The translations under genes were made by a program, and so were the position numbers. Shown piece by piece: positions 39 to 12,531 of a stretch of DNA of 23,319 nucleotides. The notes beneath the pieces are model-generated. The model was not told the origin of the DNA. It ran no database searches and was given only the letters and a program-made list of their open reading frames with translations. Location of the stretch: positions 184,990 through 208,308 of IMG/VR virus record IMGVR_UViG_3300009095_001812; one strand, given 5' to 3'. Source of the DNA: a virus. Taxonomy: Duplodnaviria; Heunggongvirae; Uroviricota; Caudoviricetes. Position 1 is the first letter of the stretch, and every line of letters begins with the position of its first letter.

Positions 39-188
39 ACAAAATTCTTTTTCTAATTTGTTTTCCAAAATATGTGTATAAGATTCTAAAAATCTCAATC
101 TAATACCTGATGGTATCACAGAATAATTCCAATGTAATCTCTGAAGGTTTATATAAAATTTCCAACCTAATTCTTTAAATTCAGACAT
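27..188 (-). CDS. Small hypothetical protein (53 aa)
   Basis: Manually translated ORF MSEFKELGWKFYINLQRLHW...; below ORF-track cutoff; no motif. Confidence 0.3.
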   Translation of the reverse strand: MSEFKELGWKFYINLQRLHWNYSVIPSGIRLRFLESYTHILENKLEKEFCTTR

Positions 189-214
189 TATATACATTAA
201 TATACGGGTATTTT

Positions 215-475
215 TTAGACCCTAGGAAAATACTTATATTTGATAATTACGAATATAATTACTGTATTGACAGTGTAATTCAGAATGAGCCATAAATCAG
301 AGAACTGGTACTTCCCCAAGATGTACGCCAACATGGCTATTTCGCCTAGACACCAAAGCCAGATGAAGGAATGGGACATCCCATTGGCATGGCCATCTTG
401 ATACGATTTGTAAGCTTGAGGAACTGCACATAGTGCTAAGAACAAACCTCCAATGAATCCTATAACTTCAATCAA
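215..475 (-). CDS. PQ-loop / SemiSWEET-like membrane protein
   Basis: 86 aa, three hydrophobic helices, PQ motif in ALCAVPQAYKSY. Confidence 0.75.
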   Translation of the reverse strand: MIEVIGFIGGLFLALCAVPQAYKSYQDGHANGMSHSFIWLWCLGEIAMLAYILGKYQFSDLWLILNYTVNTVIIFVIIKYKYFPRV

Positions 476-497
476 TATACTTTCTCTTTTTGCTAAG

Positions 498-599
498 TGG
501 GGTGAGCAGGGTTCGAACCTACACGAACTTTCAAGTTCTTCCGGTTTTATGCCGGTAGCGTCTGCCGGAGTTTTTACACTCTCATTCCGCCATCACCCT
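498..599 (-). tRNA. tRNA-Leu(TAA), atypical (D-loop hairpin insertion, A33, 1:72 mismatch)
   Basis: Anticodon arm ACCGG-CATAAAA-CCGGA, long variable arm, T-arm GTAGG-TTCGAAC-CCTGC, Leu-type D arm GCGGAAT..GGCAGACGC. Confidence 0.65.
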
Positions 600-678
600 A
601 TAGTCTTGACTATTGCACTGCTAATTTTTCTCGACCTAATTATTTATTTAATTATAATATAAGTTATTAGATATTAAA

Positions 679-810
679 AGTAACGAAAAATTAAAGACCT
701 CTATTTTCGTGTGCTGCCATTACACCATCCTGCTATAAATCAGCAGGACCAGGATTCGAACACTGGACTTCGCTCTTATGGGGAGATGAAAGATCTTTGA
801 GCGCGTTACT
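679..810 (-). ncRNA. Y-RNA(YrlA)-like element, copy 1 (permuted tRNA module)
   Basis: AGTAACG/CGTTACT terminal helix; AAAGATC/GGTCTTT second helix; inside T-arm (GTTCGAATC), acceptor hairpin TCCTGCT/AGCAGGA, D-arm GTGTAATGGCAGCAC. Confidence 0.75.
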
Positions 811-839
811 TGAACTTGAAAGAAGCCTTGCGACTTCAG

Positions 840-912
840 CTCCTCCCCCAGGACTTGAACCCGGATCATCTTGTTTAACAGACAAGAGCATTGCCAATTA
901 TGCTAGAGAGGA
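840..912 (-). tRNA. tRNA-Asn(GTT)
   Basis: Cloverleaf; anticodon arm CTTGT-CTGTTAA-ACAAG. Confidence 0.9.
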
Positions 913-925
913 AAATGTACGCATA

Positions 926-1177
926 TTAGAACTCAAATAAAAGTTCATTTCTATCATTGAACCAAACTCCAATTTCAACAATTTTGTCGTAATCAATTAC
1001 ATCCTTAGAGTATGAATACTTAAAGCCTAAATGCTTTATCAATTCAATGTATCCTGGCACCAAAGAATAGAGCTTATCATCAACGATTGCATTGATGTGT
1101 GAAATAGATTTGTCACTATAAAAATGATTAATTATTGTCTCAGCATCTTGTATAAAAGGTACATACTTTGAAATCAT
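926..1177 (-). CDS. Hypothetical protein
   Basis: 83-aa ORF filling the gap between tRNAs. Confidence 0.55.
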   Translation of the reverse strand: MISKYVPFIQDAETIINHFYSDKSISHINAIVDDKLYSLVPGYIELIKHLGFKYSYSKDVIDYDKIVEIGVWFNDRNELLFEF

Positions 1178-1341
1178 AATTCGATCTGCTTCATAAAATG
1201 AAGCAGCAAATTTCTGAGCCTTCTTTTACAAAGAAGGTATGTTTTATTTCGAATGACGTTCAGATTTGGATCCTGAGTAGCTCTATTATCACTTCCAAGG
1301 ATTGTATAGTTTGATTTATGTGCGTAAATATGTACTGTCAT
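1174..1341 (-). CDS. Hypothetical protein (55 aa; start moved to MTVHIY..)
   Basis: Internal ATG just downstream of tRNA-Leu(CAA); ATGA overlap with next ORF. Confidence 0.4.
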   Translation of the reverse strand: MTVHIYAHKSNYTILGSDNRATQDPNLNVIRNKTYLLCKRRLRNLLLHFMKQIEL

Positions 1342-1344
1342 TAG

Positions 1345-1426
1345 TCCCCACAGCAGGAGTCCAACCTGCACGCCCGAAGGCACCAAATTTTGAATCTGGC
1401 ATGTCTGGCAATTCCATCATGTGGGG
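1345..1426 (-). tRNA. tRNA-Leu(CAA)
   Basis: Acceptor CCCCACA/TGTGGGG; anticodon arm CCAGA-TTCAAAA-TTTGG; variable arm. Confidence 0.85.
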
Positions 1427-1538
1427 AAAATCTATCAATAAGTAGACATATGATTATGATCAAAAAAGATGTCTACCAAATAGTCAGTTTATTGACTGTG
1501 TTAAAACTAGCAAAAATACTCACGAAGCACTCGTAAAA

Positions 1539-2126
1539 ATGGGCCTTAATAGCAGAGGTGCAGCTTATAAAACATTCAAGGTTAGGTGTGAAAAACTCGA
1601 ACTCGATTTATCACATTTTGTTAGTGATAAACATCTCAGAAAAACATTATCCAAAACCGAGATTTCTCGATCTATAATTGATAATATATCAAGGCAAATG
1701 TCTTTGAAACAGCTTCAATTAAACCCACATACTGGTGCTAACATAAAGTGGATTGATCGTAAAGCGCGAGAATATTTAATTGATACTTCTCATTGGAAAG
1801 GTCAAGGACACCTAAAGGGTAAAAAACATAACTGGACGCCAGGTATTAGTTTAGATCAAATTCTTGTAAAAAACTCTACTTATCTCTGGACAGCAAACTT
1901 AAAGAAAAAATTACTAAAGGATGGATATTTTGATTATCGTTGTTCTGAATGTGGGATTAGTGAGTGGAACAATAAACCATTATCACTTCAACTAGATCAT
2001 ATAAATGGAGTGAATGATGATAATCGTATTGAGAATCTGAGGCTGTTGTGTCCGAATTGTCATTCTCAAACAACAACGTTTGCAGCTAAAAACAAACGAA
2101 CTGTGTCTGCCATTTTCATCACTTGA
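1539..2126 (+). CDS. HNH homing endonuclease (N-terminus probably frameshifted)
   Basis: CSECGISEWNNKPLSLQLDHINGVNDDNRIENLRLLCPNCHSQT HNH motif; paralog of 8899..9591. Confidence 0.85.
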   Translation: MGLNSRGAAYKTFKVRCEKLELDLSHFVSDKHLRKTLSKTEISRSIIDNISRQMSLKQLQLNPHTGANIKWIDRKAREYLIDTSHWKGQGHLKGKKHNWTPGISLDQILVKNSTYLWTANLKKKLLKDGYFDYRCSECGISEWNNKPLSLQLDHINGVNDDNRIENLRLLCPNCHSQTTTFAAKNKRTVSAIFIT

Positions 2127-2128
2127 GC
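2101..2128 (-). pseudogene. 5' remnant of a Leu-type tRNA
   Basis: GCTCAAG-TG-ATGAAAATGGCAGACACAG closely parallels the 5' third of tRNA-Leu(GAG) GTCCAGG-TG-GTGGAATGGCAGACACAG; no 3' half found. Confidence 0.6.
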
Positions 2129-2133
2129 ATTAA

Positions 2134-2258
2134 TGGTAACGAAAGATTGAAAGACCTAGCCGCTCACCTAGAACCACCTTTGAGCAGTTTTGCCATGAAT
2201 TGAACAGGCAGGTTTTATATACCAATAAAAGATGAAAGATCTTTCTAGCGCGTTACCA
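2134..2258 (-). ncRNA. Y-RNA(YrlA)-like element, copy 2 (degenerate T-arm plus D-like hairpin)
   Basis: TGGTAACG/CGTTACCA; GAAAGATC/GGTCTTTC; interior TGCC-TGTTCAATTCA-TGGCA and GCTCA..TGAGC hairpins. Confidence 0.7.
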
Positions 2259-2261
2259 GAG

Positions 2262-2334
2262 TGGGCCTAGGTGGACTCGAACCACCATTGATCGCGTATC
2301 AGACGATTATCCTAAACCATTAGAAGATAGGCCC
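2262..2334 (-). tRNA. tRNA-Ile(GAT)
   Basis: Anticodon arm ATCGT-CTGATAC-GCGAT; acceptor GGGCCTA/TAGGCCC. Confidence 0.9.
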
Positions 2335-2339
2335 TTTAA

Positions 2340-2585
2340 TTAACTAGACAATATTGCTATATCATTGTTGAGTTCTTTGATTGATTTTTTAAGATCCGCA
2401 TTTTCTTTTTCCAGAATACTCAGACGTTCAATAGCCCACAGAACTGCATATGCGTGGGGTGCTTCTATTACGGTTTGTCCATTTATATGGAGAACCCCAA
2501 ACATCGGATCTATATCAATCTCTCCCAATGCTTTTTGATAGCACTCGGGAGTAAAGTATTCTAGTGAATAAATTGTATCAGACAT
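2340..2585 (-). CDS. Hypothetical protein
   Basis: 81-aa ORF between tRNAs; C-terminal coiled-coil-like stretch. Confidence 0.55.
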   Translation of the reverse strand: MSDTIYSLEYFTPECYQKALGEIDIDPMFGVLHINGQTVIEAPHAYAVLWAIERLSILEKENADLKKSIKELNNDIAILSS

Positions 2586-2616
2586 AGCAGTAAAAACATT
2601 CTCTTTGCGCCCTTAG

Positions 2617-2689
2617 TGACCCCAACCGGATTCGAACCGGTGTCCTCAGATTGAAAGTCTAAGAATCCTTACCGCTAGACGATGGGGCC
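2617..2689 (-). tRNA. tRNA-Glu(TTC)
   Basis: Anticodon arm TTAGA-CTTTCAA-TCTGA; T-arm ACCGG-TTCGAAT-CCGGT. Confidence 0.9.
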
Positions 2690-3135
2690 GTGTTTATTAA
2701 TTGTGTATATTTTTCTAACTGATTTGATGCTTTATGTTTAGAAATCTGTAATTTATGTTTACCAATCTCTACAACATCAATAATACCACGATGAATTTCA
2801 GCATGATGATTTGGACATAATAAAAATGTATTTTCATGGGTATATTTTCCACCGACTTTTCCAGGAACAAACCTATGTATATCTAATGTTTTTCCATATA
2901 AACACCCATCTATCATACAGTGATTGATATTAGAGTCATTTATAATTTTAACCAGCATTCTTGCTTTTCCAGAAGCTTTATCTTTAAGTCTGGATCCGTC
3001 ATAAACTATACCAACTCTTGCTTCATTTGAGCACTTGGTCGAACAATATTTTCTCAATTTGTAAGACTCATAAATGAAATCATTTTTGCAATTTGCACAA
3101 ATGGATTTGATTTTTTTAGAAGAAACAGATTCCAC
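2659..3135 (-). CDS. Zinc-finger HNH endonuclease (true start probably ATG at 3242, disrupted by a TA-tract frameshift)
   Basis: CANC..YCSTKC zinc motif; LDIHRFVPGKVGGKYTHENTFLLCPNHHAEIH HNH-like motif; C-terminus runs into tRNA-Glu. Confidence 0.75.
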   Translation of the reverse strand: MESVSSKKIKSICANCKNDFIYESYKLRKYCSTKCSNEARVGIVYDGSRLKDKASGKARMLVKIINDSNINHCMIDGCLYGKTLDIHRFVPGKVGGKYTHENTFLLCPNHHAEIHRGIIDVVEIGKHKLQISKHKASNQLEKYTQLINTAPSSSGKDS

Positions 3136-3243
3136 TTGACATTTTATTGAACAATATATATATTATTGTACTTTTTCAGTTCACCAGGCCTTCTATAAAC
3201 TGGTTTTTTACAAATAGTACATTCTGTATTTGGGTTTCTCATG

Positions 3244-3326
3244 CGGAGAGCTGAGGAGTCGAACCCCTGACCTTTCAGTCCCCACCGGGTTCAAACCGGT
3301 TTGCCAACCACTTAGCGGAACTCTCC
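3244..3326 (-). tRNA. tRNA-Ser(TGA)
   Basis: Anticodon arm ACCGG-TTTGAAC-CCGGT; long variable arm; G73. Confidence 0.85.
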
Positions 3327-3347
3327 AAATCTGCTTGACCTTCCTTT

Positions 3348-3542
3348 TTACCACCACCATGTATCAAATAAGAGTCTGTCCCCAAAGATTTCATCGTATC
3401 TTTCATGATGGATTAGACGCCTGTCACGTTGTCTAATCTTGTGTCGGTGAAAGAACCGATCAGATCTAGAAGGTTTGCAATACCAGCTTGCAGAACCGTG
3501 GTGATTTTGTTTATATTTTCTTCTGTAGTTTTTGTGAGCCAT
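3348..3542 (-). CDS. Basic hypothetical protein
   Basis: 64 aa, Arg/His-rich, in a run of overlapping minus-strand ORFs. Confidence 0.5.
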   Translation of the reverse strand: MAHKNYRRKYKQNHHGSASWYCKPSRSDRFFHRHKIRQRDRRLIHHERYDEIFGDRLLFDTWWW

Positions 3543-3741
3543 ACGAGTGTAACTCGCAGAACTCTTGAATCCAATTAGTCATGTTTTTCTCTTTCTGTAT
3601 TAACACCCTTTTTAGAGCTTTAGTACCATCTTCCATTGTTATGACTTCGTAATGAACATTATAATCAAAAGGAGGAGAATTTCTTTTAATCTGCTCTCTA
3701 GCTTCATCAATCGAAACATGATATTTGCTCAGATTCTTCAT
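3511..3741 (-). CDS. Hypothetical protein
   Basis: 76-aa ORF. Confidence 0.5.
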   Translation of the reverse strand: MKNLSKYHVSIDEAREQIKRNSPPFDYNVHYEVITMEDGTKALKRVLIQKEKNMTNWIQEFCELHSYGSQKLQKKI

Positions 3742-3895
3742 ATGAACTCACAATGAAATAGTTATTAAGAGTTTTGTTTCCATATAGATCAAAAAGCGCA
3801 TCGGCTAATTCATCATCAGATGATTCTTCAATACCTTTCATAATCAAAGATATTGCATCTTCTCTGGTAATGTCAATAGTTGAATAGATTCCCAT
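3707..3895 (-). CDS. Hypothetical protein
   Basis: 62-aa acidic ORF. Confidence 0.55.
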   Translation of the reverse strand: MGIYSTIDITREDAISLIMKGIEESSDDELADALFDLYGNKTLNNYFIVSSYEESEQISCFD

Positions 3896-3910
3896 AATTT
3901 TTCTTTAGAA

Positions 3911-4047
3911 AAGTAACGAAAAAAGGCGAGAGTACATTTCCGTCGCTCTACCAACTGAGCTACCTGACCATAGATGCGGTCAGGGCAGGACTTGAACCTG
4001 CGACCCACGGATTAACAATCGATGAAATCTCTCTAGGCGCGTTACTT
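3911..4047 (-). ncRNA. Y-RNA(YrlA)-like element, copy 3 (permuted tRNA-Asn-like module)
   Basis: AAGTAACG/CGTTACTT; GAGAG/CTCTC; interior GATTGTTAATCCGT-GGGTC-GCAGGTTCAAGTCCTGC-CCTGACC-loop-GGTCAGG-TA-GCTCAGTTGGTAGAGC-G-ACGGA. Confidence 0.8.
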
Positions 4048-4049
4048 AG

Positions 4050-4121
4050 TGGATCCTTCCGGTTTCGAACCGGCTCTCCTGGGCTTCAACCAGGCGCTTT
4101 CACCAGATTAGCTTAGGATCC
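4050..4121 (-). tRNA. tRNA-Phe(GAA)
   Basis: Anticodon arm CCTGG-TTGAAGC-CCAGG; acceptor GGATCCT/AGGATCC. Confidence 0.8.
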
Positions 4122-4123
4122 AA

Positions 4124-4191
4124 AGTGACGAAAATAACGAAGACCTTTTGTCCAATTTACAGTAAGATGAATGATCTTCTTGCGCGTCACT
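4124..4191 (-). ncRNA. Y-RNA(YrlA)-like element, copy 4 (minimal scaffold, no tRNA module)
   Basis: AGTGACG/CGTCACT (compensatory change versus GTAACG/CGTTAC); GAAGATC/GGTCTTC; ~20-nt interior. Confidence 0.7.
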
Positions 4192-4197
4192 AAAACT

Positions 4198-4860
4198 TTA
4201 TTTAGTATCAGAGGTCCAGTTTGCAGTTTTTGGTTCTGAACTAAAAACCTCATCTGATATATCTTTTGCAATACAAACGTATTCTTTTGAATACTCTTGT
4301 TCAGATGCCTCTATAAACATCTTTCCAATTTTTCGCAATGAATCTTTATTGGTACATACTACGGTTTTGTTTTGTAGATTACCAAACGTGGATTGATTTA
4401 TCTCAATCTGTGGACCGTGACCCCTATCACAAACAGAGAAGGTGATACCAGAGTTAGAAAGGTGAAGATAAGTGCTAAGCTTCTCTGGGAAGTCTGCTAT
4501 CGCGAAATATCTGGAAGGCTCTTTGCCATAGAAAACCTTACTTACAGCAATGATTGTGCCTCGTGGCATGTAAGGATCAACAAAAACTGGAGTATCAATT
4601 CGTTTGCCAGAATCGAAAGCAACTACATTGTTTGTTAATCTCTTTATATCTAGTAAATCCTCATCAAAATCTTTTGGATGTACGATGAAGTTTCCGACTT
4701 CTAAATCCCATCGAGCAATCTGTGCAAACAAATTGACTAGAGCGTTTTTCTTTTCGGTAATTACTGAGTTCTCAGCATCATTCGCTTTGCAAAGTTTGAT
4801 AATATCCTCTGCAAAAAATCCATGATATTTTGGTCTTCCATCTACTTTTTCATCTTCCAT
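4198..4860 (-). CDS. Hypothetical protein (220 aa; start MEDEKVDG)
   Basis: Long ORF; the upstream extension in the ORF track overlaps tRNA-Arg, so start moved. Confidence 0.7.
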   Translation of the reverse strand: MEDEKVDGRPKYHGFFAEDIIKLCKANDAENSVITEKKNALVNLFAQIARWDLEVGNFIVHPKDFDEDLLDIKRLTNNVVAFDSGKRIDTPVFVDPYMPRGTIIAVSKVFYGKEPSRYFAIADFPEKLSTYLHLSNSGITFSVCDRGHGPQIEINQSTFGNLQNKTVVCTNKDSLRKIGKMFIEASEQEYSKEYVCIAKDISDEVFSSEPKTANWTSDTK

Positions 4861-4874
4861 AAATTTCCTATTAG

Positions 4875-4947
4875 CATTCCCGGCAGGACTCGAACCTGCA
4901 ATTGGCAACTTAGAAGGTTGCTGCTTATCCTATTAAGCTTCGGGAAC
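4875..4947 (-). tRNA. tRNA-Arg(TCT)
   Basis: Anticodon arm GCAAC-CTTCTAA-GTTGC. Confidence 0.9.
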
Positions 4948-4952
4948 ATTCA

Positions 4953-5132
4953 TTATAGATACTTTTCCCAGAATATATCTATTGCTTCTTTACGAATACC
5001 TTGCTTAGCAAGTAGGTGAACTTCATGGAGTTTCACAACTCCTTTTTCAACAAAATCAATTATCAAACCAGCCTGTTGCTGAGAATGTTTTTCTATTAAT
5101 TTCTTGTCAACCGGATCTGCCACGCTTTTCAT
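4953..5132 (-). CDS. Small hypothetical protein (59 aa)
   Basis: Manually translated MKSVADPVDKKLIEKHSQQQAGLIIDFVEKG..FWEKYL; fills an otherwise empty gap. Confidence 0.45.
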   Translation of the reverse strand: MKSVADPVDKKLIEKHSQQQAGLIIDFVEKGVVKLHEVHLLAKQGIRKEAIDIFWEKYL

Positions 5133-5412
5133 TTCCTCTTCTCCTCTTTGTCCTGTATCTCCTATTTGGATCTTGTTTAGAGAGCCATTTCATATATTTA
5201 CCAAACTCCTCATGTCCAAGAAGAGCTTCAACAGTATGATATGTAGATTCAAGTTCTTTGTTAGAAAAGAAAGCGTGAATAGAACGATGACAGTCAAGAC
5301 AAATGGGAAGTGTCTTTTTTCCGCCTCTTGATTTGGGAACTAGATGATGGTCGCTAACTTTTTGAACATCTCGACTACAAAGAGGGCAGTTGTGTATAAT
5401 TTCATTTCTCAT
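5107..5412 (-). CDS. Small HNH-family nuclease
   Basis: CPLC..DHHLVPKSRGG..PICLDCHRSIH motif. Confidence 0.75.
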   Translation of the reverse strand: MRNEIIHNCPLCSRDVQKVSDHHLVPKSRGGKKTLPICLDCHRSIHAFFSNKELESTYHTVEALLGHEEFGKYMKWLSKQDPNRRYRTKRRRGNEKRGRSG

Positions 5413-5719
5413 TTTCCCACATATCATTTGCTATCGCTGCTAGTGTATGTCCATGACATAATTTGGGAGAACACCAACAACCAAGAACTTTACCTTTCAA
5501 TTCTTTCTTTATATCCTCAATCATTTGAGGTTGTGAAAGAATCCATTCTCTATGTTTTTGAATTGATTCTTCTCTTGTCTGTACTTTGTATTGGGCAAGA
5601 GTTCCATCTTTTGAAGAGAAGGGATTTCCCCACTTAGACGGACGCCCTATGTAAACATCATATTTCTTTTTGGATCTATGAACTACATAAGGCCAAACTT
5701 CTTTGAAGAGAATTTTCAT
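5402..5719 (-). CDS. DUF4326-like protein (start MKILFK)
   Basis: YDVYIGRPSKWGNPF and LKGKVLGCWCSPKLCHGHTL motifs. Confidence 0.8.
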   Translation of the reverse strand: MKILFKEVWPYVVHRSKKKYDVYIGRPSKWGNPFSSKDGTLAQYKVQTREESIQKHREWILSQPQMIEDIKKELKGKVLGCWCSPKLCHGHTLAAIANDMWENEK

Positions 5720-5722
5720 TCG

Positions 5723-5806
5723 TGTCCAGAGAGGGAGTCGAACCCTCACGACCGTAACGGTCGGCAGCCCCTCAAGCTGCTGTGTCTGCCATTCCACCAC
5801 CTGGAC
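5723..5806 (-). tRNA. tRNA-Leu(GAG)
   Basis: Anticodon arm GCAGC-TTGAGGG-GCTGC; variable arm. Confidence 0.9.
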
Positions 5807-5807
5807 A

Positions 5808-6110
5808 TTATCTTTCGTATATACCAAATTTTACTAACTTGATATTACGTTTTGTTTCTGTATCTATATTCTTCAAAGAACCTTCATCAAGTTCATAAAG
5901 AATATTGACTTTTGTATATTTAACTAAAAGATCAGATGTCAATGTAACTATCAACAAAGCAGCTGAGGCTTGAAGAAACTTCACATTGAGTTCAGAAATT
6001 GAAACTAATCCTAAAAAGATTGTTCCAAAGAGCGCTAGTAAAAATATCATCTTGCTAAAAAAATGTTTAGCAAACATCCAATTTAGAATTATGCGCTCTT
6101 TAATCTTCAT
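5808..6110 (-). CDS. Hypothetical membrane protein (start MKIKER)
   Basis: Two hydrophobic segments; start moved out of tRNA-Gln. Confidence 0.6.
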   Translation of the reverse strand: MKIKERIILNWMFAKHFFSKMIFLLALFGTIFLGLVSISELNVKFLQASAALLIVTLTSDLLVKYTKVNILYELDEGSLKNIDTETKRNIKLVKFGIYER

Positions 6111-6111
6111 G

Positions 6112-6183
6112 TTGGGGTGGCAAGATTCGAACTTGCAACGAACCGGGTCAGAGCCGATCATTCTACCGTTGAATTACACCCCA
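6112..6183 (-). tRNA. tRNA-Gln(CTG)
   Basis: Anticodon arm ATCGG-CTCTGAC-CCGGT; acceptor TGGGGTG/CACCCCA. Confidence 0.9.
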
Positions 6184-7197
6184 ATTGGGTTCTGGATAGA
6201 GACTAACTACACAGTTTCTTCCTGAATCCTTTGCTACATACAGATTTTTATCTGCTCTCTCTACTAGAGAATCTATATCATCAATTTCATAAACTTCCGC
6301 AACGCCAATACTGACTGTTACTTCAAGCTTTCCGTCAATTTTGAGGGATGATATCTTGTTTTTAATTCTGTTGGCAACGGATGTTGCTGCGTCTAGTGTT
6401 GTTCCTGTCCAAACAATAAGGAACTCTTCACCGCCCCATCGACCAACAATATCTTCTTGTCTCAAATTTTCTACTATTGTTTGAACAACTGACTTAATTA
6501 CGCGATCACCCATTGCATGACCATAGTTATCATTGAAAAACTTGAAGTGGTCTATGTCAACTAAACCAACAGAAACGGGAGTTTCATTTCGATGAAACTT
6601 TGAAATCTCAGCCTTCAAAAGCTCCGTGATAACTCTTCTGTTGTAAACAGATGTAAGACCATCGTAAGTTGCATACTTCTCTAATTTGTCTAAAGCCTTC
6701 TTTAAATCATTTTCAGCTTTGACTCTGTCATCTATATCTCTGGTAATACAAATGATTTTTTCAACTCCATTACCATTTTTACGAGATGATGATCTTGTTT
6801 CAACCCACCTATAATTCCCTTTAAAATCACGGATTCTGTATTGAATTGGTTTAGACTCATCTAAAGCATGAGCTGCATGATCCTCTGCAATCATCTCTAA
6901 ATCATCTTGGTGAATCAAACAATAAGCTGATTTACCAACAAGGTATCCTGGTTCGTACCCAAGAATTCTTTTTACCGAAGGTGATGCAAAAAGATAATCT
7001 CCATTTGGAGAGTGAATAGAAATAAAGTCCGCAGAATAGTTTGCTATTAGCGATGATATTGAGTTATCAAAATCAATTCCTAAATTAGAAGAAATTGTCT
7101 GCGACCTTTGAAGACCAAGCTGATCCTCGACTTTGGCAACCTTTTGGTGAAGCAAAGCCAATTCCTTGTACAGCTTGGTCTTGTTTAGCAAACCCAC
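6163..7197 (-). CDS. PAS-domain diguanylate cyclase (GGDEF)
   Basis: PAS/PAC segment; YDGLT; DIDHFKFFNDNYGHAMGD; RQED I-site; RWGGEEF; AKDSGRNCV. Confidence 0.92.
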   Translation of the reverse strand: MGLLNKTKLYKELALLHQKVAKVEDQLGLQRSQTISSNLGIDFDNSISSLIANYSADFISIHSPNGDYLFASPSVKRILGYEPGYLVGKSAYCLIHQDDLEMIAEDHAAHALDESKPIQYRIRDFKGNYRWVETRSSSRKNGNGVEKIICITRDIDDRVKAENDLKKALDKLEKYATYDGLTSVYNRRVITELLKAEISKFHRNETPVSVGLVDIDHFKFFNDNYGHAMGDRVIKSVVQTIVENLRQEDIVGRWGGEEFLIVWTGTTLDAATSVANRIKNKISSLKIDGKLEVTVSIGVAEVYEIDDIDSLVERADKNLYVAKDSGRNCVVSLYPEPNWGVIQR

Positions 7198-7224
7198 TAC
7201 TGTATCTTAAATAATTACCATATG

Positions 7225-7296
7225 CAGGTCGCACAGGACTTGAACCCGTACCAATGGATTTGGAATCCACTATGCTACCAATTACACCAACGACCT
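7225..7296 (-). tRNA. tRNA-Trp(CCA)
   Basis: Anticodon arm GTGGA-TTCCAAA-TCCAT. Confidence 0.9.
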
Positions 7297-7540
7297 ATAG
7301 TAACTGTCTAAATCCTTCTAATGATAAAGTTTTTTCTTGAGATTCTTTGTACGTGTCGCATACACCATTTTTATGAATGCTTAGATACAATTCTTTTTTG
7401 TGTTTAAGATGAAAGTAAGTTTTTATTGTACACTCACCATAATCATTTCCGTTTTTGAATACAGAATATTCACAAAAATAACAGGACTTTTGTACTCTAT
7501 ATCCATTCTCATTAAGAACTTTGAGTTTGTTTATGTCCAT
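7295..7540 (-). CDS. Hypothetical Cys-containing protein
   Basis: 81 aa with CYFC and further Cys/His. Confidence 0.55.
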   Translation of the reverse strand: MDINKLKVLNENGYRVQKSCYFCEYSVFKNGNDYGECTIKTYFHLKHKKELYLSIHKNGVCDTYKESQEKTLSLEGFRQLL

Positions 7541-7551
7541 TTTTTAATTCC

Positions 7552-7667
7552 AGTAACGAAAAAACAAAGAGACTGTTTGTTCAACCCAGGATTTGAACCT
7601 GGAATATTCTGATTGCTCAGATGCGTTTACCATTTCGCGAGATGAAATCTCTTTTGGGCGCGTTACT
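7552..7667 (-). ncRNA. Y-RNA(YrlA)-like element, copy 5 (non-permuted D/anticodon-like/T module)
   Basis: AGTAACG/CGTTACT; AAAGAGA/TCTCTTT; interior GCG-AAATGGTAAA-CGC, TCTGA-GCAA-TCAGA, CCAGG-TTCAAAT-CCTGG. Confidence 0.7.
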
Positions 7668-7670
7668 TTG

Positions 7671-7743
7671 TGAACCCTCTCGGAATCGAACCGAGGATCT
7701 TCAGATTAAGAGTCTGATGCTGTTCCTATCTAGCTTAGGGTCC
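7671..7743 (-). tRNA. tRNA-Lys(CTT)
   Basis: Anticodon arm TCAGA-CTCTTAA-TCTGA. Confidence 0.9.
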
Positions 7744-7748
7744 TAATA

Positions 7749-7871
7749 AACAAACGAAAAAGTGCAGACAAATGGGCCGCCAGTATTACCGACGTTTTCC
7801 TTAGCCCCGGATGGAATCGAACCATCTCGCGCCCAATTTATGATAGATGAAATGTCTACGGCGCGTTTGTT
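7749..7871 (-). ncRNA. Y-RNA(YrlA)-like element, copy 6
   Basis: AACAAACG/CGTTTGTT (covarying); GTAGACA/TGTCTGC; interior TGGGC/GCCCA stem enclosing T-arm GATGG-TTCGATT-CCATC then a D-like hairpin. Confidence 0.7.
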
Positions 7872-7949
7872 GAACTTGTCCGCAACAGAGTAGCCTAACG
7901 GTGGTTTGCTATAATCGAACTTACTTCGATACTTCGTGCTCTATTGAAG

Positions 7950-8000
7950 TGGCGGAAGGTGAGGGAATTGAACCCCCAAGGCTATTACGCTCGGCACTTT
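7950..8000 (-). pseudogene. 3' half remnant of a Ser-type tRNA
   Basis: AAA-GTGCC-long variable arm-GGGGG-TTCAATT-CCCTC-ACCTTCC-G-CCA, starting at the HNH stop codon. Confidence 0.75.
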
Positions 8001-8605
8001 TATAAACCATAAAATCTAGCCCATTTTCTGACAGCGTTGTCAGAAACTCCAAACATCCTTCCGATAGATACCCAAGTTTTAGTATCTATTAATTTTGATA
8101 ACTCATCTTTACTGGGTCTTTCAACTTTTCTCAAATGAGTTCTTCCTATTCTTTTTTGAGATTCTTTATTAGGGAATCTACACTTTTTGTTACAAAAATG
8201 TTTAGCATATTTTTTCAATCTTGACGGCTGAACTCTTTTTTCCTTACCGCAAGTTGAACAAGATACGTATACAGGTTCTATAACATCTATAAATTGCCTA
8301 AGATATTTTTCTTTTTCTATAGACTCTTTTATATGCATCTCTTCATGAACCTCTCTATGACAATTGGAACAAAGTAATTGACATTTATCTAGTTCATTTT
8401 TTATAAATTTCCATTTCTTATTAGATATATGAGATACAGATTTATCTTTTTCATTTGGATCTTTGTGATGAAAATCCATAGCTGCATAACTTTTGTTGTA
8501 TCCACACCTTTCGCACTTTCCACCTTTATATTCTACAGCTTGTTTTTTAATTCGCCGCCGTCTTTCAGAAAGTTTCCAGTTTTGATATTGTTGTCTTTTG
8601 TTCAT
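8000..8605 (-). CDS. HNH homing endonuclease with C-terminal zinc motif and HTH
   Basis: CERCGY..DFHHKDP..KCQLLCSNCHREVH; VSIGRMFGVSDNAVRKWA; paralog of 10461..11219. Confidence 0.85.
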   Translation of the reverse strand: MNKRQQYQNWKLSERRRRIKKQAVEYKGGKCERCGYNKSYAAMDFHHKDPNEKDKSVSHISNKKWKFIKNELDKCQLLCSNCHREVHEEMHIKESIEKEKYLRQFIDVIEPVYVSCSTCGKEKRVQPSRLKKYAKHFCNKKCRFPNKESQKRIGRTHLRKVERPSKDELSKLIDTKTWVSIGRMFGVSDNAVRKWARFYGL

Positions 8606-8638
8606 GCTTGTATGTTCAATTATGCATACAAACTGGTG

Positions 8639-8722
8639 CGGAAAGCACTGGAGTCGAACCAGACACCTTTCGGTGCATTCTGATTAGCAGTCAGATGAGC
8701 AACCACTTACTCTTTACCTTCC
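8639..8722 (-). tRNA. tRNA-Ser(GCT)
   Basis: Anticodon arm TCTGA-CTGCTAA-TCAGA; variable arm; G73. Confidence 0.85.
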
Positions 8723-8727
8723 ATTTT

Positions 8728-8803
8728 GGTGACCGACGGGAATCGAACCCGCAAGAAACAACTGAGCCACAATCAGTCCGCTAACCAATTTGCGTTCGGT
8801 CAC
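8728..8803 (-). tRNA. tRNA-His(GTG)
   Basis: Anticodon arm ACTGA-TTGTGGC-TCAGT; C73; G-1 not encoded. Confidence 0.85.
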
Positions 8804-8805
8804 AG

Positions 8806-8842
8806 TGCAGGATGAGGGAATCGAACCCCCGACCTATTCCTT
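8806..8842 (-). pseudogene. 3' half of a split tRNA (partner of 9663..9688)
   Basis: AA-GGAAT-AGGTC-GGGGG-TTCGATT-CCCTC-ATCCTGC-A. Confidence 0.75.
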
Positions 8843-8898
8843 CTAATAATCCCACCGATCTTTAATCGAACCAATGACCTCTACTAATATCTTGGTAG

Positions 8899-9591
8899 AT
8901 GTATATGGGTATCTATTGGAACGATAAAGATTTTATTGAAGCTATAAAGAACAACAACACAATTAGTGATGTCCTGCGCGTTTTTGACATTCCTTCAAAC
9001 CAAGGATATTACAACAAGATGTTTCACGAAGATGTTGCAAGGTTGAATGTATCAACTATGCATTTTGTGAAGAGCAAACAGCCAGCAAATACTTGGCCAT
9101 TAGATCAAATACTTGTAGAAAATTCTTTTTATAAAGGAGGTTCTTATTATTTAAAGCTTCGACTTTTCAAAGAAAAATTACTTAAGAAAGAGTGTGCTGA
9201 GTGTGGTCAAGGACCAAAATGGAATGATAAAAAATTATCACTCCATCTCGATCATGTCAACGGAAATCCCAAAGATAACAGGATTGAAAATCTGAGGATT
9301 CTTTGTCCCAACTGTCACTCTCAGACAGAAACTTATTGTGGATCAAAAAAGAGAAAAGAAAAACATACTTACAAGTTTGTTTGTAAGTCTTGCGGCGGAC
9401 CAAAGAAGACATCACAGTCTACTTTGTGCAACAATTGCAGTGCAAAAACCAAAGCAAAATCAAAAATTGATTGGCCTAATAGTGATATCTTATCATCTAT
9501 GATACAAGACTTTGGTTATGAATATACTGGTAAAAAACTTGGCGTGTCTGGTAATGCTGTAAAAAAACATTACCAGAAATTTAGTGGATGA
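8899..9591 (+). CDS. HNH homing endonuclease with C-terminal zinc motif and HTH
   Basis: CAECGQGPKWNDKKLSLHLDHVNGNPKDNRIENLRILCPNCHSQT; CKSC..CNNC; KLGVSGNAVKK. Confidence 0.88.
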   Translation: MYMGIYWNDKDFIEAIKNNNTISDVLRVFDIPSNQGYYNKMFHEDVARLNVSTMHFVKSKQPANTWPLDQILVENSFYKGGSYYLKLRLFKEKLLKKECAECGQGPKWNDKKLSLHLDHVNGNPKDNRIENLRILCPNCHSQTETYCGSKKRKEKHTYKFVCKSCGGPKKTSQSTLCNNCSAKTKAKSKIDWPNSDILSSMIQDFGYEYTGKKLGVSGNAVKKHYQKFSG

Positions 9592-9659
9592 TACTGGACT
9601 CGAACCAGTGAAACCTCTGACTTGTAAAAACAGTGCTCTACCAACTGAGCTAATCATCC
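9585..9659 (-). tRNA. tRNA-Val(TAC)
   Basis: Acceptor GGATGAT/ATCATCC; loop TTTACAA; anticodon stem has one mismatch. Confidence 0.8.
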
Positions 9660-9662
9660 GCT

Positions 9663-9688
9663 GAATTACTCTACTGAGCTAATCCTGC
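9663..9688 (-). pseudogene. 5' half of a split tRNA (partner of 8806..8842)
   Basis: GCAGGAT-TA-GCTCAG-TAGAG-TA-ATTC; GCAGGAT perfectly complements ATCCTGC of the 3' remnant; D loop partly deleted. Confidence 0.7.
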
Positions 9689-9692
9689 ATAA

Positions 9693-9829
9693 GTAACGAA
9701 AAGGTGAAAGACCATTTTGTATCATAGTGCTTCCGTTACACCATACAGGCCGCTAAGCCTGCAACGGGATTCGAACCCGTACCTTTTGTTTCGTAGACAG
9801 TTAGATGAACGATCTCTCTAGCGCGTTGT
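9693..9829 (-). ncRNA. Y-RNA(YrlA)-like element, copy 7 (permuted module with CTACGAA loop)
   Basis: AACG/CGTT; GAGAGATC/GGTCTTTC; T-arm ACGGG-TTCGAAT-CCCGT; acceptor hairpin TGCAGGC/GCCTGTA; D-arm GTGTAACGGAAGCAC. Confidence 0.75.
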
Positions 9830-9832
9830 TTG

Positions 9833-9911
9833 TGTCCATAGAGGGACTCGAACCCCCACGCCGAAGCAATACGTTCTAAGCGTATCGTGTCTGCCATTCC
9901 ACCATATGGAC
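9833..9911 (-). tRNA. tRNA-Leu(TAG)
   Basis: Anticodon arm ATACG-CTTAGAA-CGTAT. Confidence 0.9.
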
Positions 9912-9937
9912 ATAGATATTCAATGTAGTTGTATTTG

Positions 9938-10012
9938 TCAGGGAGATAGGATTCGAACCTACAACCTTCTCACTCCAGATGAGACCGTCTACCAAGTTGA
10001 CATTACACCCTG
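9938..10012 (-). tRNA. tRNA-Pro(TGG)
   Basis: Anticodon arm TCTCA-TCTGGAG-TGAGA (C33); C1 acceptor CAGGGTG. Confidence 0.8.
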
Positions 10013-10077
10013 ATGTAGTTTTATATTATAAGTAGATTGCTAAATGCATAATTAGGCATAGAATTTGAGGTGCCATT

Positions 10078-10407
10078 ATGTTAAGTGACAACACTGGATT
10101 TACTCTAAGTATAGGAAAGCTAACTGCAATCATTATATCTGTTGTAGGTATGAGCTTTACTATAGGTATGTCTTATCAGTCTTTGATGCCTGATCGTGAG
10201 CTTCAAAAGAAGCAGACAGAAAAAATTGAAAAGATAGAAATCACAATGGAAAGAGTAACTACTGTACTTGAAAAACTAGAGGAGAAAACCTCTCAGCATT
10301 CTCAGGCTATCAATGACGTTCAAACTAAAATCAATACAGTAAACACTGAGGTTCAAGTAATTGGATCTTATGTAAAACAGAACGAAGAGAGAAAAGGAAG
10401 AAGATAA
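10078..10407 (+). CDS. Hypothetical single-TM coiled-coil protein (holin-like possible)
   Basis: N-terminal TM helix followed by heptad repeats; GAGGT SD upstream. Confidence 0.6.
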   Translation: MLSDNTGFTLSIGKLTAIIISVVGMSFTIGMSYQSLMPDRELQKKQTEKIEKIEITMERVTTVLEKLEEKTSQHSQAINDVQTKINTVNTEVQVIGSYVKQNEERKGRR

Positions 10408-10417
10408 CTTTCCAGAG

Positions 10418-10462
10418 TGCAGCGCGAGGGATTCGAACCCCCTCAGCCCGAAGGCGACAGTT
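10418..10462 (-). pseudogene. 3' half remnant of a type II (probably Tyr) tRNA
   Basis: AA-CTGTC-GCCTTCGGGCT-GA-GGGGG-TTCGAAT-CCCTC-GCGCTGC-A; the AA is shared with the HNH TAA stop. Confidence 0.7.
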
Positions 10463-11219
10463 AAATCTTTCGTAGCCAATATCCCTGTGGTGGTAATTCT
10501 ATATTATTATTTTTACACCTTTTTTTTATCGCCGTATCGGATACTCCTAGAGTTTTAGAAAGTTTTGATAATGGGTATTTCCAAACTAAATCTCCAAGGT
10601 TAGGTGGCCATTCTATTTTACAAATATAATTTGTAAAGATTGTTTTAGATTTTGGTTTATCAACGCCAAGTTCATTACAAATTCTTTTTAATGTAGAAAC
10701 AGAAACTTTAAGATTAGATGCTGCATCTGATAGATTCATTGAATTTAACAATTCAGATAAATATTTTTTTGAAGGTCTTGGTATTTTTGTAGTTTTTGAA
10801 TTACACGATCTACATTTTTGTGATTTACAATCAAACCTTACAGAAAATGGTTTTTTACAAGATTTACAAATTCTATTTTCTTTTATTTCATTTTGTAAAT
10901 CCTTCAAAAGGATTTTTTCAGAAGCTTGTTTTTTAGCACGTTGTCTTTCATGCTCTTCTATATGACAATTTGAACACAATAAAATACACTTATCCAATTC
11001 TGATTTTATTTTATCCCAAGACATCGTCGATTTTGAAATCGTAAAATCTTTTTTGGATGGATCTAAATGATGAAATTGCAAAGCTGTTATCGATTTATCA
11101 TAATCACAGTTTTCACATTTTCTACCTTTATAAATAACAGATTTTATTTTCAAATTTCTTCTAAAATCATTTATACGTACACGTTTTACTACCTTTTTGT
11201 ATTCGTCAATTTTGTTCAT
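10461..11219 (-). CDS. HNH homing endonuclease with zinc and HTH domains
   Basis: CENCDY..LQFHHLDP..KCILLCSNCHIEEH; two C-terminal HTH-like repeats. Confidence 0.85.
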   Translation of the reverse strand: MNKIDEYKKVVKRVRINDFRRNLKIKSVIYKGRKCENCDYDKSITALQFHHLDPSKKDFTISKSTMSWDKIKSELDKCILLCSNCHIEEHERQRAKKQASEKILLKDLQNEIKENRICKSCKKPFSVRFDCKSQKCRSCNSKTTKIPRPSKKYLSELLNSMNLSDAASNLKVSVSTLKRICNELGVDKPKSKTIFTNYICKIEWPPNLGDLVWKYPLSKLSKTLGVSDTAIKKRCKNNNIELPPQGYWLRKI

Positions 11220-11249
11220 ATATAGATACTACATTATTAGTAGTTCTAG

Positions 11250-11335
11250 TGAGGTGTGAGGGATTCGAACCCACTAGACTCACAAGAGTGTCTGATTTAC
11301 AGTCAGATCCGGCCCTCCAACTCCGGCGCTACCTC
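11250..11335 (-). tRNA. tRNA-Tyr(GTA) (imperfect acceptor and T stems)
   Basis: Anticodon arm TCTGA-CTGTAAA-TCAGA; variable arm; 2 acceptor mismatches. Confidence 0.75.
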
Positions 11336-11406
11336 AGGTGAACTCAGAACCCAACCTGCCTGTCTAGACCTAAATCCAAACAGAGCGGGTCAAGAGTTCA
11401 ATATCG

Positions 11407-11504
11407 TGGTGGGAGTAAGATTTGCACTTACGCAGGCTACTTGGATCTCAAGCATTACCAGGAGTTTTATAGACTCTTGCCCTCTCAAACAGGCGAGCCC
11501 CACC
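11407..11504 (-). tRNA. Tyr-like tRNA with ATA anticodon and very long variable arm
   Basis: Acceptor GGTGGGG/TCCCACC; AGAGT-CTATAAA-ACTCC; ~27-nt variable arm; T-arm GTAAG-TGCAAAT-CTTAC. Confidence 0.6.
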
Positions 11505-11605
11505 AAAATGAAGTATTCAGTTGTCAATGATCGAGGAGGGTTTCCCTCATCTATCTGAACAATCGATAACTTTTGTATCAATTGCGAACTTTAGCTTGTC
11601 GCTAG

Positions 11606-11677
11606 TTGGGGAACTGGGATTCGAACCCAGGTAGACAGCTTCAAAGGCTGCAGTCCTAGCCGCTGGACGATTCCCCA
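11606..11677 (-). tRNA. tRNA-Gln(TTG)
   Basis: Anticodon arm GCAGC-CTTTGAA-GCTGT; acceptor TGGGGAA/TTCCCCA. Confidence 0.9.
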
Positions 11678-11760
11678 AAATAAATATGAATTAAGATTAG
11701 ATAGTATTGTAATGAATTATTATGTTAGAATGTATAGTTGATGTTTAGAAATCAAATATG

Positions 11761-11793
11761 AAAAAACCGGCTCGGGATTTTTCCCTGCCGGTT
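11761..11793 (-). terminator. Rho-independent terminator-like hairpin upstream of the tRNA cluster
   Basis: AACCGGC-AGGGA-AAA-ATCCC-GAGCCGG followed by T6. Confidence 0.65.
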
Positions 11794-11823
11794 CTCGGAA
11801 ACGAAGTGTTTGTTTAGATCAAA

Positions 11824-11985
11824 TCAAATCGATTCGGTACTCCGGCAGGTGTCCTTCTGATAAAAGCGATTTTCGGCATTCCACGCACTTAGATCGCTGA
11901 TATTCAAGGAAATCTCAGGGCGCACGAGTGCATCGCCTTTTCTCAGGCATGCAGGCTTATGTTGATGTGCGCTAAATGAAGACAT
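11824..11985 (-). CDS. Small ORF / possible leader peptide (53 aa)
   Basis: MSSFSAHQHKPACLRKGDALVRPEISLNISDLSAWNAENRFYQKDTCRSTESI; AGGA SD; followed by terminator. Confidence 0.4.
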   Translation of the reverse strand: MSSFSAHQHKPACLRKGDALVRPEISLNISDLSAWNAENRFYQKDTCRSTESI

Positions 11986-12300
11986 GATTTCCTAGAAGGG
12001 TAGTTACCCACCGCGTAATATTATTTCAAAATATTAGTTGTTCTCGACCACAAAAGTTATTGAGTCGCAGTATTTGAAGCCCCACGCGGCTATTATTTCC
12101 CCGATGCTCAGGAGCTGCATTGAGCAAGAACTCATGGTGTAAGGCTAGGCCTTTGCCGCTGCCACCTTTGAATGTTGATCGACCGGACCCTGATGCGGGG
12201 GTTTTCCGAAACAAGGCCCGGTCTATCGACGCCCAGATGATGGGAAGACCACCACCTGTTCGCAACAGTAACCTCTTTGCAGGGTTGGGTCAAGGAAAAA

Positions 12301-12531
12301 TCAAACTTTTGTGGTGGGTATACCCCGAACCTTTCGCCGTCCTTCAAATTCAGCATTCAGTTGCTGGATTTGCTCTCTGGTCAGCCACTCGGCCCCGCAC
12401 TGATCGCACGCCGGGAACTCCAAGTCCTCCGGCACCTCGTAACCACTCTCACCTCTGTACGTCTTGAAACGCCCAGCGCCGGTAGAGAGTCGAAGTTTTG
12501 ACCCGCATTCATCACACAGATGGAGATCCAT
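12301..12531 (-). CDS. YgiT/MqsA-type zinc-finger protein (76 aa; start MDLHLC)
   Basis: CDECG...CDQCGAEWLT; AAGGAG SD; GC-rich. Confidence 0.6.
   Translation of the reverse strand: MDLHLCDECGSKLRLSTGAGRFKTYRGESGYEVPEDLEFPACDQCGAEWLTREQIQQLNAEFEGRRKVRGIPTTKV

Follow-up and report, generated by a model that had tools for sequence, protein, structure and literature searches.

Phage T5 carries in its transfer RNA (tRNA) region the HNH site-specific nicking endonucleases F-TflI, F-TflII and F-TflIV, and phage tRNA arrays have come to be seen as counter-measures to host tRNA-cutting nucleases. In phage T4 the endonuclease SegB cuts tRNA genes at the T-arm, spreading the T4 tRNA region along with its own gene (PMC2330249); SegB co-localizes with tRNAs across phages, and in escape mutants of T6 the 3' end of segB is joined to tRNA-Tyr by microhomology, which truncates SegB (PMC13096335). 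Here we describe four open reading frames (ORFs), HNH A to HNH D, in a 23,319-nucleotide (nt) stretch of DNA from a virus of the class Caudoviricetes (IMG/VR record IMGVR_UViG_3300009095_001812, positions 184,990 to 208,308; this whole stretch is referred to as the window), each of which lies beside a broken tRNA gene. We judge it about 60% probable that all four are free-standing HNH homing endonuclease genes, belonging to two families that live almost only in phage tRNA arrays, and that their insertions overwrite resident tRNA genes. Their setting is that of SegB, a free-standing nuclease between tRNA genes that targets tRNA-gene DNA and co-localizes with tRNAs, although SegB is a GIY-YIG rather than an HNH enzyme, its sites lie at the T-arm or 3' end and not, as here, at the anticodon loop or near position 27, and its description does not include dead tRNA stumps abutting the nuclease ORF.

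The prediction made from the bare sequence that these ORFs encode HNH proteins was borne out, since all four match Pfam HNH and PHROG HNH families, and the nuclease motifs HH...N...H and DH...N...CH are visible in alignments of the proteins. The ORFs begin at their own ATG codons, which are preceded by short hairpins. They are distributed as follows (window positions).

10461-11219, minus strand: HNH A, type 1, 252 amino acids; Pfam HNH plus RWP-RK/HTH; phrog_2255.
8000-8605, minus strand: HNH B, type 1, 201 amino acids; Pfam HNH; phrog_2255.
8899-9591, plus strand: HNH C, type 2, 230 amino acids; Pfam HNH and HNH_3; phrog_10822.
1539-2126, plus strand: HNH D, type 2, 195 amino acids; Pfam HNH; phrog_10822.

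The type 1 genes lie on the tRNA strand and encode proteins with an HNH domain at the N-terminus and a helix-turn-helix (HTH) at the C-terminus. HNH A and B are 33% identical; in HNH A the N-terminal HNH is followed by zinc-ribbon-like cysteines and two C-terminal HTH repeats, while the C-terminal HTH of HNH B carries the motif GVSDNAVRKW. The type 2 genes of the window are antisense to the tRNAs, their products are 56% identical over the core, and the genome holds two further copies of this type. A C-terminal HTH motif, GVSxNAVxK, is common to both types; in the alignment the C-terminal part with this HTH is missing from an intron-borne type 2 copy described below and from HNH D, which lacks the zinc-ribbon as well. 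In Enterococcus phage Bop a homologue of HNH C, flanked by tRNA-Asn and tRNA-Ser, has been labelled F-TflIV-like, and this annotation, together with phrog_10822, places HNH C and D in the same HNH family as F-TflIV, with which they also have the tRNA-array habitat in common. The present type 2 genes run opposite to the tRNAs and adjoin tRNA genes that are broken.

The tie to tRNA genes extends across both families. In a survey of 80 IMG/VR loci with type 1 relatives and 80 with type 2 relatives, a tRNA or lone T-arm was found within 300 nt in 78/80 type 2 loci, and 51/80 type 1 loci had a same-strand T-arm no more than 130 nt downstream. Among these 51, 23 ORFs run into a complete tRNA and stop at a TAA in its D-loop or anticodon loop, and 19 abut a 5'-truncated tRNA; in several type 1 loci the two tRNAs flanking the HNH gene are of one isoacceptor (Asn/Asn, Ile/Ile). 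The closest IMG/VR homologues of HNH B (44% identical) immediately precede Ser(GCT)-type tRNAs, into which their reading frames extend. On the counts of 51/80 and 78/80 loci both HNH families are tRNA-array specialists, and fusion of the ORF to tRNA sequence is normal for them; the link between these HNH families and tRNA genes drawn in the original prediction thus holds, with the Bop homologue, as an association.

Two further observations stand apart. In the relatives' loci at L070:3523-3609, L021:2853-2940 and L044:2543-2629 there are tRNAs of 82-89 nt whose anticodon is GTT, for which ARAGORN reports Asn, although the variable arm is long and the D-arm of class II; they often adjoin type 1 HNH genes. 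Outside the window, at L001 ~19026-19043 (genome ~184025-184042, minus strand), a fifth HNH gene, which is of type 2 and runs with the tRNAs, is followed directly after its stop by a piece of ~17 nt similar to the 3' end of Asn(gtt) in two related genomes (G001 and G002, below); the piece may be another very short stump.

The window is the final 23.3 kb of a 208-kb contig which, by our estimate, is about half of a giant phage genome. Its tRNA array comprises ~40 genes, all on the minus strand, at 125-197 kb of the contig; of these genes the window contains 17 called by ARAGORN and 2 more found by Rfam. Stumps of tRNA genes were sought with a T-arm scan (5-bp stem, TTCRANN loop, closing G-C pair), which recovered all called tRNAs together with a set of lone T-arms inside the tRNA region and, over the genome, gave almost no clean matches beyond that region. 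The lone T-arms at ~3977-4001, 7802-7826 and 9756-9780 are Y-RNA-like units and not stumps. Nine such units, bracketed by AACGCG and TTTCGTT, were identified; their terminal stems covary, one matches Rfam YrlA at 42 bits, and several are permuted, with the T-arm and 3' acceptor strand placed before the 5' acceptor strand and D-arm.

Y-RNA-like units: 682-807, 2138-2254, 3915-4043, 7555-7664, 7753-7867 and 9695-9827 of the window; one straddles 1-36; two more lie in L001.

No Ro60 gene was found in a Pfam TROVE search of the 208-kb contig. With the Y-RNA-like units discounted, three lone T-arms are left, all of them against HNH genes. These three 3' stumps, a 5' stump and the associated tRNA genes are listed below.

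10418-10460, minus strand: stump A, class II Leu(TAA)-like; T-arm scan, with the T-arm 17/17 identical to that of the genome's Leu(TAA).
11250-11335, minus strand: Tyr(GTA)-type tRNA; Rfam 27.3 bits against a threshold of 29; not called by ARAGORN.
7950-8001, minus strand: stump B, Ser(xGA)-type, from ~loop position 36 to the encoded CCA; 40/50 gapless to the genome's Ser(GGA).
8638-8722, minus strand: intact Ser(GCT); ARAGORN, Rfam and synteny with G001.
8806-8847, minus strand: stump C, the 3' half of a split tRNA; anticodon-stem 3' strand, short variable loop, T-arm, ATCCTGC and discriminator A.
9660-9688, minus strand: the 5' half of that split tRNA; acceptor strand GCAGGAT, then TAGCTCAG with a canonical D-arm start, a shortened D-arm and part of the anticodon stem.
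9584-9659, minus strand: Val(TAC), between the split halves; Rfam 62.5 bits, the top-scoring tRNA of the window.
2101-2128, minus strand: stump D, a Leu-type 5' piece, tRNA positions 1 to ~27; from the sequence and repeat family D11.
1344-1426, minus strand: intact Leu(CAA); ARAGORN, Rfam 43 bits; 113 nt beyond the start of HNH D.

For stumps A, B and C alike, the end of an HNH ORF is no more than 75 nt away (permutation p = 0.0014). All three begin in or just past the anticodon loop, and the TAA stops of HNH A and HNH B fall at that junction, in agreement with the prediction that the 3' remnants begin at about position 36-37 and that HNH stops abut the loop. The claim of four tRNA breaks beside HNH genes also stands in that real fragments are present at all four sites, but the break at site D is near position 27 and not in the anticodon loop. 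The stumps have a further feature in common, the T-stem GGGGG/CCCTC, which is present in all three 3' stumps and in just 6/54 T-arms of the genome (Fisher p = 0.0008); stumps A and C are also alike in their acceptor end and trailer (83% identity over 30 nt). When three mismatches were allowed, stump A matched only the Leu(taa) of G002 and G003, and stump C was not found in four relatives.

For comparison we used three distant IMG/VR genomes, no close relative having been found by megablast in the GenBank phage collection. G001 is complete at 169 kb, and its tRNA array is partly syntenic with the window in short blocks at 70-80% identity; G002 (392 kb) and G003 (216 kb) encode an 833-amino-acid protein 81% identical to that of the present phage. 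Presence of the nucleases across these distant relatives is sporadic against a syntenic tRNA order: G001 has a LAGLIDADG gene at the slot of HNH B and a homologue of HNH C at another locus, and G002 has a truncated homologue of HNH A at the slot where HNH A stands in the window.

One instance of this is site B. The order in G001 is His, Ser(gct), a LAGLIDADG endonuclease gene (L164:14210-14614, minus strand) and an intact Ser(tga); in the window it is His, Ser(GCT), HNH B and the 3' part of a Ser(xGA) gene. Given this order without HNH B, Ser(GCT) is an old resident, and stump B corresponds by position to the second, downstream tRNA. Since G001 has a LAGLIDADG gene where the window has HNH B, the slot has been used by two unrelated nuclease families. 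Intact versions of the remnants had been expected in relatives lacking the HNH genes, and G001 does show an intact Ser(tga) at this slot, but with the LAGLIDADG nuclease present. Stump B aligns with Ser(GGA) from the last anticodon-loop bases through the 3' strand of the anticodon stem, the long variable arm and the T-arm to the acceptor, and the TAA stop of HNH B sits on its loop; in the sequence upstream of the stump its anticodon arm was not found. Read most simply, the interval between two resident Ser genes is an endonuclease landing place, and HNH B, in arriving there, erased the downstream gene from its 5' end as far as the anticodon loop.

We also considered whether Ser(GCT) could be a chimera, its 5' half old and its 3' half imported, in which case stump B would be the old 3' half that was displaced. 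The 3' acceptor strand of stump B, ACCTTCC, is perfectly complementary to the 5' acceptor strand of Ser(GCT), and the acceptor of Ser(GCT) itself contains two G-U pairs. This idea was ruled out: such G-U pairs occur in 5/38 genome tRNAs, the anticodon-stem strand AGTGC of stump B does not pair with the 5' strand TCTGA of Ser(GCT), and the complementarity is not specific to the pair, since the acceptor GGAAGGT/ACCTTCC recurs among Ser genes, that of Ser(gct) in G001 being exactly GGAAGGT/ACCTTCC-G-C. The 3' end of stump B, ACCTTCCGC, is identical to that of the same G001 gene. A 'rewired' tRNA built on stump B was rejected as well, a single 6/7 match to a 5' acceptor strand upstream being at chance level.

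Stump A, at the second type 1 site, starts directly after the TAA of HNH A and consists of a long variable arm, the T-arm, the 3' acceptor strand GCGCTGC and a discriminator A; its presumed 39-43 strand, as read by eye from the printed sequences, agrees with Leu(TAA) at 4/5 positions. Neither an anticodon arm nor a 5' acceptor strand for it was found within 160 nt upstream, and the lack of a 5' acceptor strand rules out a 'rewired' tRNA here. The gene on the other side of HNH A had been described as an intact Tyr(GTA), a description that does not survive: it scores below the Rfam threshold, ARAGORN is silent, and two of its acceptor pairs, A6.C67 and G7.A66, are mismatched. It is nevertheless the orthologue of the second Tyr gene of G002, both having an unusual C at position 8. 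Stump A is not an old allele of this gene, since the stump is Leu(TAA)-like and the gene is the orthologue of a G002 Tyr gene. The order in G002 is Tyr, Tyr, a 121-amino-acid homologue of HNH A, and Asn(gtt), and the truncated ORF reads 10 nt into Asn(gtt). The expected pairing of a remnant with a neighbour of its own class is seen for Ser/Ser at site B and Leu/Leu at site D; at site A the Leu(TAA)-like stump and the Tyr-type gene share only the long variable arm.

Two further details concern the Tyr-type genes. GTAGCGC at 11326-11332 is complementary to the acceptor strand GCGCTGC of stump A (10419-10425) but 3 nt out of register, a joined Tyr would need a non-canonical D-arm (ARAGORN), and G002 has GTATCGC, so that the match is probably due to chance. 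Next to it, 11408-11503 (minus strand) is the orthologue of the first Tyr gene of G002; its acceptor is intact, its anticodon loop is CTATAAA, its variable region has an insert of ~30 nt and its T-loop is degenerate, so that this is a tRNA in decay or else a highly unusual one.

At site C both halves of the broken gene remain. Their acceptor strands, GCAGGAT and ATCCTGC, are perfect Watson-Crick complements 876 nt apart, and four of the five anticodon-stem pairs can still form, which puts the break in the anticodon loop. Just 3 nt separate the 3' half from the His gene downstream of it; in G001 the corresponding place is taken by an intact Asn(gtt), with 2 nt between it and His. Val(TAC) and HNH C stand tail to tail between the halves, and HNH C has its stop codon within Val(TAC), in the sequence of the 3' acceptor strand. 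The Val(tac) of G001 has a very different sequence and occupies another slot, beside Lys(ctt), and Val(TAC) is a probable passenger of the HNH C insertion. Of the four sites only C fits a nuclease and passenger tRNA within a broken tRNA. In G001 the nearest relative of HNH C, at 46% identity, is likewise antisense between the two halves of a tRNA, here a different one; no passenger accompanies it, and the space is too small for a ribozyme. A search for the split tRNA of site C in intact form found nothing, and joining tRNA halves in silico is uninformative, since ARAGORN accepts hundreds of junction combinations. A weak similarity of the site C flank to the 3' end of the group I intron described below was considered and set aside, as it was not backed by Rfam. 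At 8803-8855 (minus strand) the sequence GTGGGAT, 25 nt upstream of the T-arm of stump C, pairs with the acceptor strand of the stump through two G-U pairs, and the resulting minihelix of GTGGGAT, acceptor and T-arm gives a weak Rfam tmRNA match (15 bits, E = 7e-4 in a 931-nt search).

Site D preserves the opposite end of a tRNA. Stump D has the 5' acceptor strand GCTCAAG and a Leu-type D-arm, with a 10-mer common to intact Leu tRNAs, including the Leu(GAG), Leu(TAG) family. HNH D is homologous to HNH C up to KNKR, after which eight codons and the stop are read from the antisense of stump D, and this tail places the junction near position 27, at the boundary of D-arm and anticodon stem, and not in the loop. 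The 3' partner of stump D is absent from the genome, where the T-arm scan gave no T-arm followed by CTTGAGC. The acceptor of the neighbouring Leu(CAA), CCCCACA/TGTGGGG, is paired with itself and not with stump D. In G001 the homologue of HNH D abuts a Ser(GGA)-like gene without a 3' acceptor strand (read by eye); breakpoints vary, as this 3'-truncated gene indicates.

By analogy with SegB we infer for the HNH genes a cleavage target, a repair route and mobility; the truncated HNH D may be dead. The enzyme would cut or nick a tRNA gene in a genome without the nuclease gene, and repair would copy the nuclease gene in. One repair junction would be made by illegitimate or microhomology joining and not by homology, so that part of the resident tRNA would be overwritten and the stump would begin at the junction. 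At sites A and B this junction would be the anticodon loop of the downstream tRNA, where the TAA/AAA of the loop coincides with the TAA stop of the nuclease; microhomology between that TAA and the A-rich 3' side of the loop would account for the coincidence. At site C the insert would consist of a foreign Val(TAC) and HNH C between both halves of the old tRNA, and at site D a 27-nt 5' stub would have survived, supplying the tail and stop of the truncated HNH. Redundant Leu(TAA) (genome 173396-173477), Ser(TGA) and Ser(GGA) (genome 137312-137400) genes are present in the genome, and the tRNA losses would be tolerated because the array has other Leu(TAA) and Ser(xGA) genes. In fungal mitochondria, mobile endonuclease ORFs of the Allomyces macrogynus atp6 type bring an endonuclease gene into a host gene together with a spare part or a spare gene, leaving the old part stranded downstream as a dead remnant. 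The logic of site C is alike, but there the genes are protein genes and the fusion is in-frame, while here they are tRNAs and no spare of the same tRNA is evident at sites A, B and D.

The original prediction went further, proposing that at all four sites the HNH gene and a diverged, cleavage-resistant tRNA copy together replace the resident allele. Val(TAC) and HNH C between the halves of one tRNA are what this would lead one to expect, stumps B and D are paired with intact tRNAs for the same amino acid, the acceptor strands of Ser(GCT) and stump B are complementary, and the intact neighbours of the stumps lack the GGGGG/CCCTC T-stem. Of the four sites, the travelling replacement tRNA fits only site C: both tRNA halves flank the insert only there, with a single stump at sites A, B and D, and the neighbours at A and B are residents, as the Tyr genes of G002 and Ser(gct) of G001 show. 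Stump B is of Ser(xGA) type and mismatched with Ser(GCT) in the stem, G001 has His and Ser(gct) without HNH B, and stump A is Leu(TAA)-like beside a Tyr gene with an orthologue in G002. A 5' stub was not found upstream of Ser(GCT) or of the Tyr-like gene, and no near-identical pair of HNH gene and tRNA was found in other loci: the best matches of Val(TAC), Ser(GCT), the Tyr-like gene and Leu(CAA) in 180 loci are 67-71% identical, giving no sign that any of these tRNAs moves together with an HNH gene. As an account of all four sites the replacement scheme is unlikely. We think it similarly improbable that the HNH genes are kept for a benefit, their DNA breaks driving tRNA duplication, loss and exchange as SegB amplifies tRNA-Tyr against Septu, with the stumps as amplification or deletion junctions. 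The amplification by SegB, in which microhomology joins the segB 3' end to tRNA-Tyr and truncates the SegB C-terminus (PMC13096335), does resemble the C-terminal truncation and fusion to tRNA sequence of HNH D and of the HNH A homologue of G002, and both the isoacceptor pairs around HNH genes in type 1 loci and the abundance of tRNA debris in the array would fit such turnover. Against it, the sequences of the stumps have moved far from those of their intact neighbours' 3' halves, so that they are not recent tandem copies, and no repeat units flank the HNH genes. An integrase-borne island with att duplication in a tRNA gene does not fit either: besides this divergence, near-identical direct repeats on the two sides of the HNH genes were not found, and no integrase was seen among the ORFs examined.

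That the fragments arose by ordinary recombination among tRNA paralogues, their adjacency to HNH genes being a coincidence in a crowded array, is very unlikely, even though the array is dense in tRNA-like elements and holds debris at 3327-3344 that has no HNH gene: the permutation test on the three 3' stumps, the two stumps that begin at an HNH stop and the same adjacency in unrelated contigs all tell against it. Still less credible is an arrangement in which the HNH ORFs are housed in introns and the tRNA pieces are exons of working tRNAs. A precedent exists elsewhere in this genome, outside the window and not among sites A to D, where the anticodon loop of a tRNA-Leu(UAA) gene (genome 159140-159908, minus strand; L002:14140-14908) is split by 682 nt with an antisense type 2 HNH gene. 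Rfam Intron_gpI matches at the 5' junction (26.3 bits, E = 2.7e-4; a genome-wide scan with the default filter missed it), the intron follows a U and ends in G, and the exons joined in silico give a perfect 85-nt Leu(TAA). The plastid and cyanobacterial tRNA-Leu(UAA) group I intron has the same loop interruption, U before the 5' splice site and terminal G, but here the intron is in a phage and holds an antisense type 2 HNH gene; conserved blocks around the ORF resemble the regions of the plastid trnL intron that flank its variable P6 loop. At sites A to D, in contrast, there is no ribozyme signal: Intron_gpI was absent from 1-12500 and 8790-9720 (Rfam), and no ribozyme was detected at site C or elsewhere in 1-12500. 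The non-coding gaps at A and B are too short for a ribozyme, stumps A and B have no 5' exon and stump D no 3' exon, and at C a whole tRNA takes the place of the intron 5' core.

Several points weigh against our own reading, that insertions of free-standing HNH genes overwrote the resident tRNAs. Cutting, nicking and homing by the HNH proteins are predictions from their sequences. The breakpoints are uneven, lying in the loop at A, B and C, near position 27 at D and, for one case from G001, near position 65. At 3327-3344 an 18-nt 5' piece of a Ser tRNA is debris with no HNH gene beside it, so array recombination alone is able to make fragments. An empty-site relative at ≥85% DNA identity was not found in searches by megablast of the phage collection, with the protein of the GGDEF gene described below, with an exact 28-mer of stump B and for the intact tRNA of site C, and no insertion event could be directly reconstructed for want of such a relative. 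Lastly, the T-stem common to stumps A, B and C and the likeness of A and C in acceptor end and trailer are predicted by overwriting only if this box is part of a recognition site.

GGGGG/CCCTC could be the mark of such a recognition box. A tentative and on balance doubtful extension of our reading is that both HNH families would bind the T-arm box GGGGGTTCRAWTCCCTC and the acceptor end through their shared C-terminal HTH, with the cut falling in the anticodon loop, ~15 to 25 bp upstream; a changed T-stem would let phage tRNA genes escape, the anticodon-loop TAA would routinely serve as the nuclease stop as well, and nuclease pressure, not only translation or host defence, would shape the tRNA alleles that are kept. 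A candidate for T-stem escape is the G-to-T change leaving a T.T mismatch in the Tyr-like tRNA. The absence of the T-stem from the intact neighbours of the stumps has been noted; nor is this T-stem shared by the tRNAs beside relatives of these HNH enzymes.

Other elements of the array are mentioned for completeness. Whereas the four HNH genes have a mobile look, a small HNH_5-type ORF (window 5107-5427, minus strand), with 68-72% DNA identity in G001, G002 and G003, seems to be a fixed gene of these phages. The tRNA array also encloses a gene for a PAS-GGDEF diguanylate cyclase (6163-7197, minus strand), and a peptide-pattern search for this GGDEF protein found no IMG/VR relative. A 92-nt tRNA-like element at 498-589 (minus strand) has a weak tRNA-Sec match. 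The elements at 7578-7647 and 9939-10011 (minus strand) are above the Rfam tRNA threshold and were missed by ARAGORN; one is inside a Y-like unit and the other has the anticodon loop TCTGGAG. The Ser 5' fragment at 3327-3344 (minus strand) is fused directly to the start of Ser(TGA), and its first 12 nt are those of the G001 Ser(gct).

As far as can be judged from sequence, the four genes appear to be an HNH variant of the tRNA-targeting nucleases of T4 and T5 and not a new kind of system. Under the overwriting that we favour, the first base of a stump would mark a past junction, and ORFs that end inside tRNA genes would be scars. Such scars provide candidate cleavage substrates, namely the GGGGG/CCCTC T-arm box and the genes for Leu(TAA) and Ser(xGA). 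Annotation is affected too, in that stumps and ORF-tRNA overlaps may be miscalled as odd tRNAs or hypothetical proteins. Taken with the survey of both families, the four sites suggest that two widespread HNH families do work comparable to that of SegB in giant phages, leaving readable scars.

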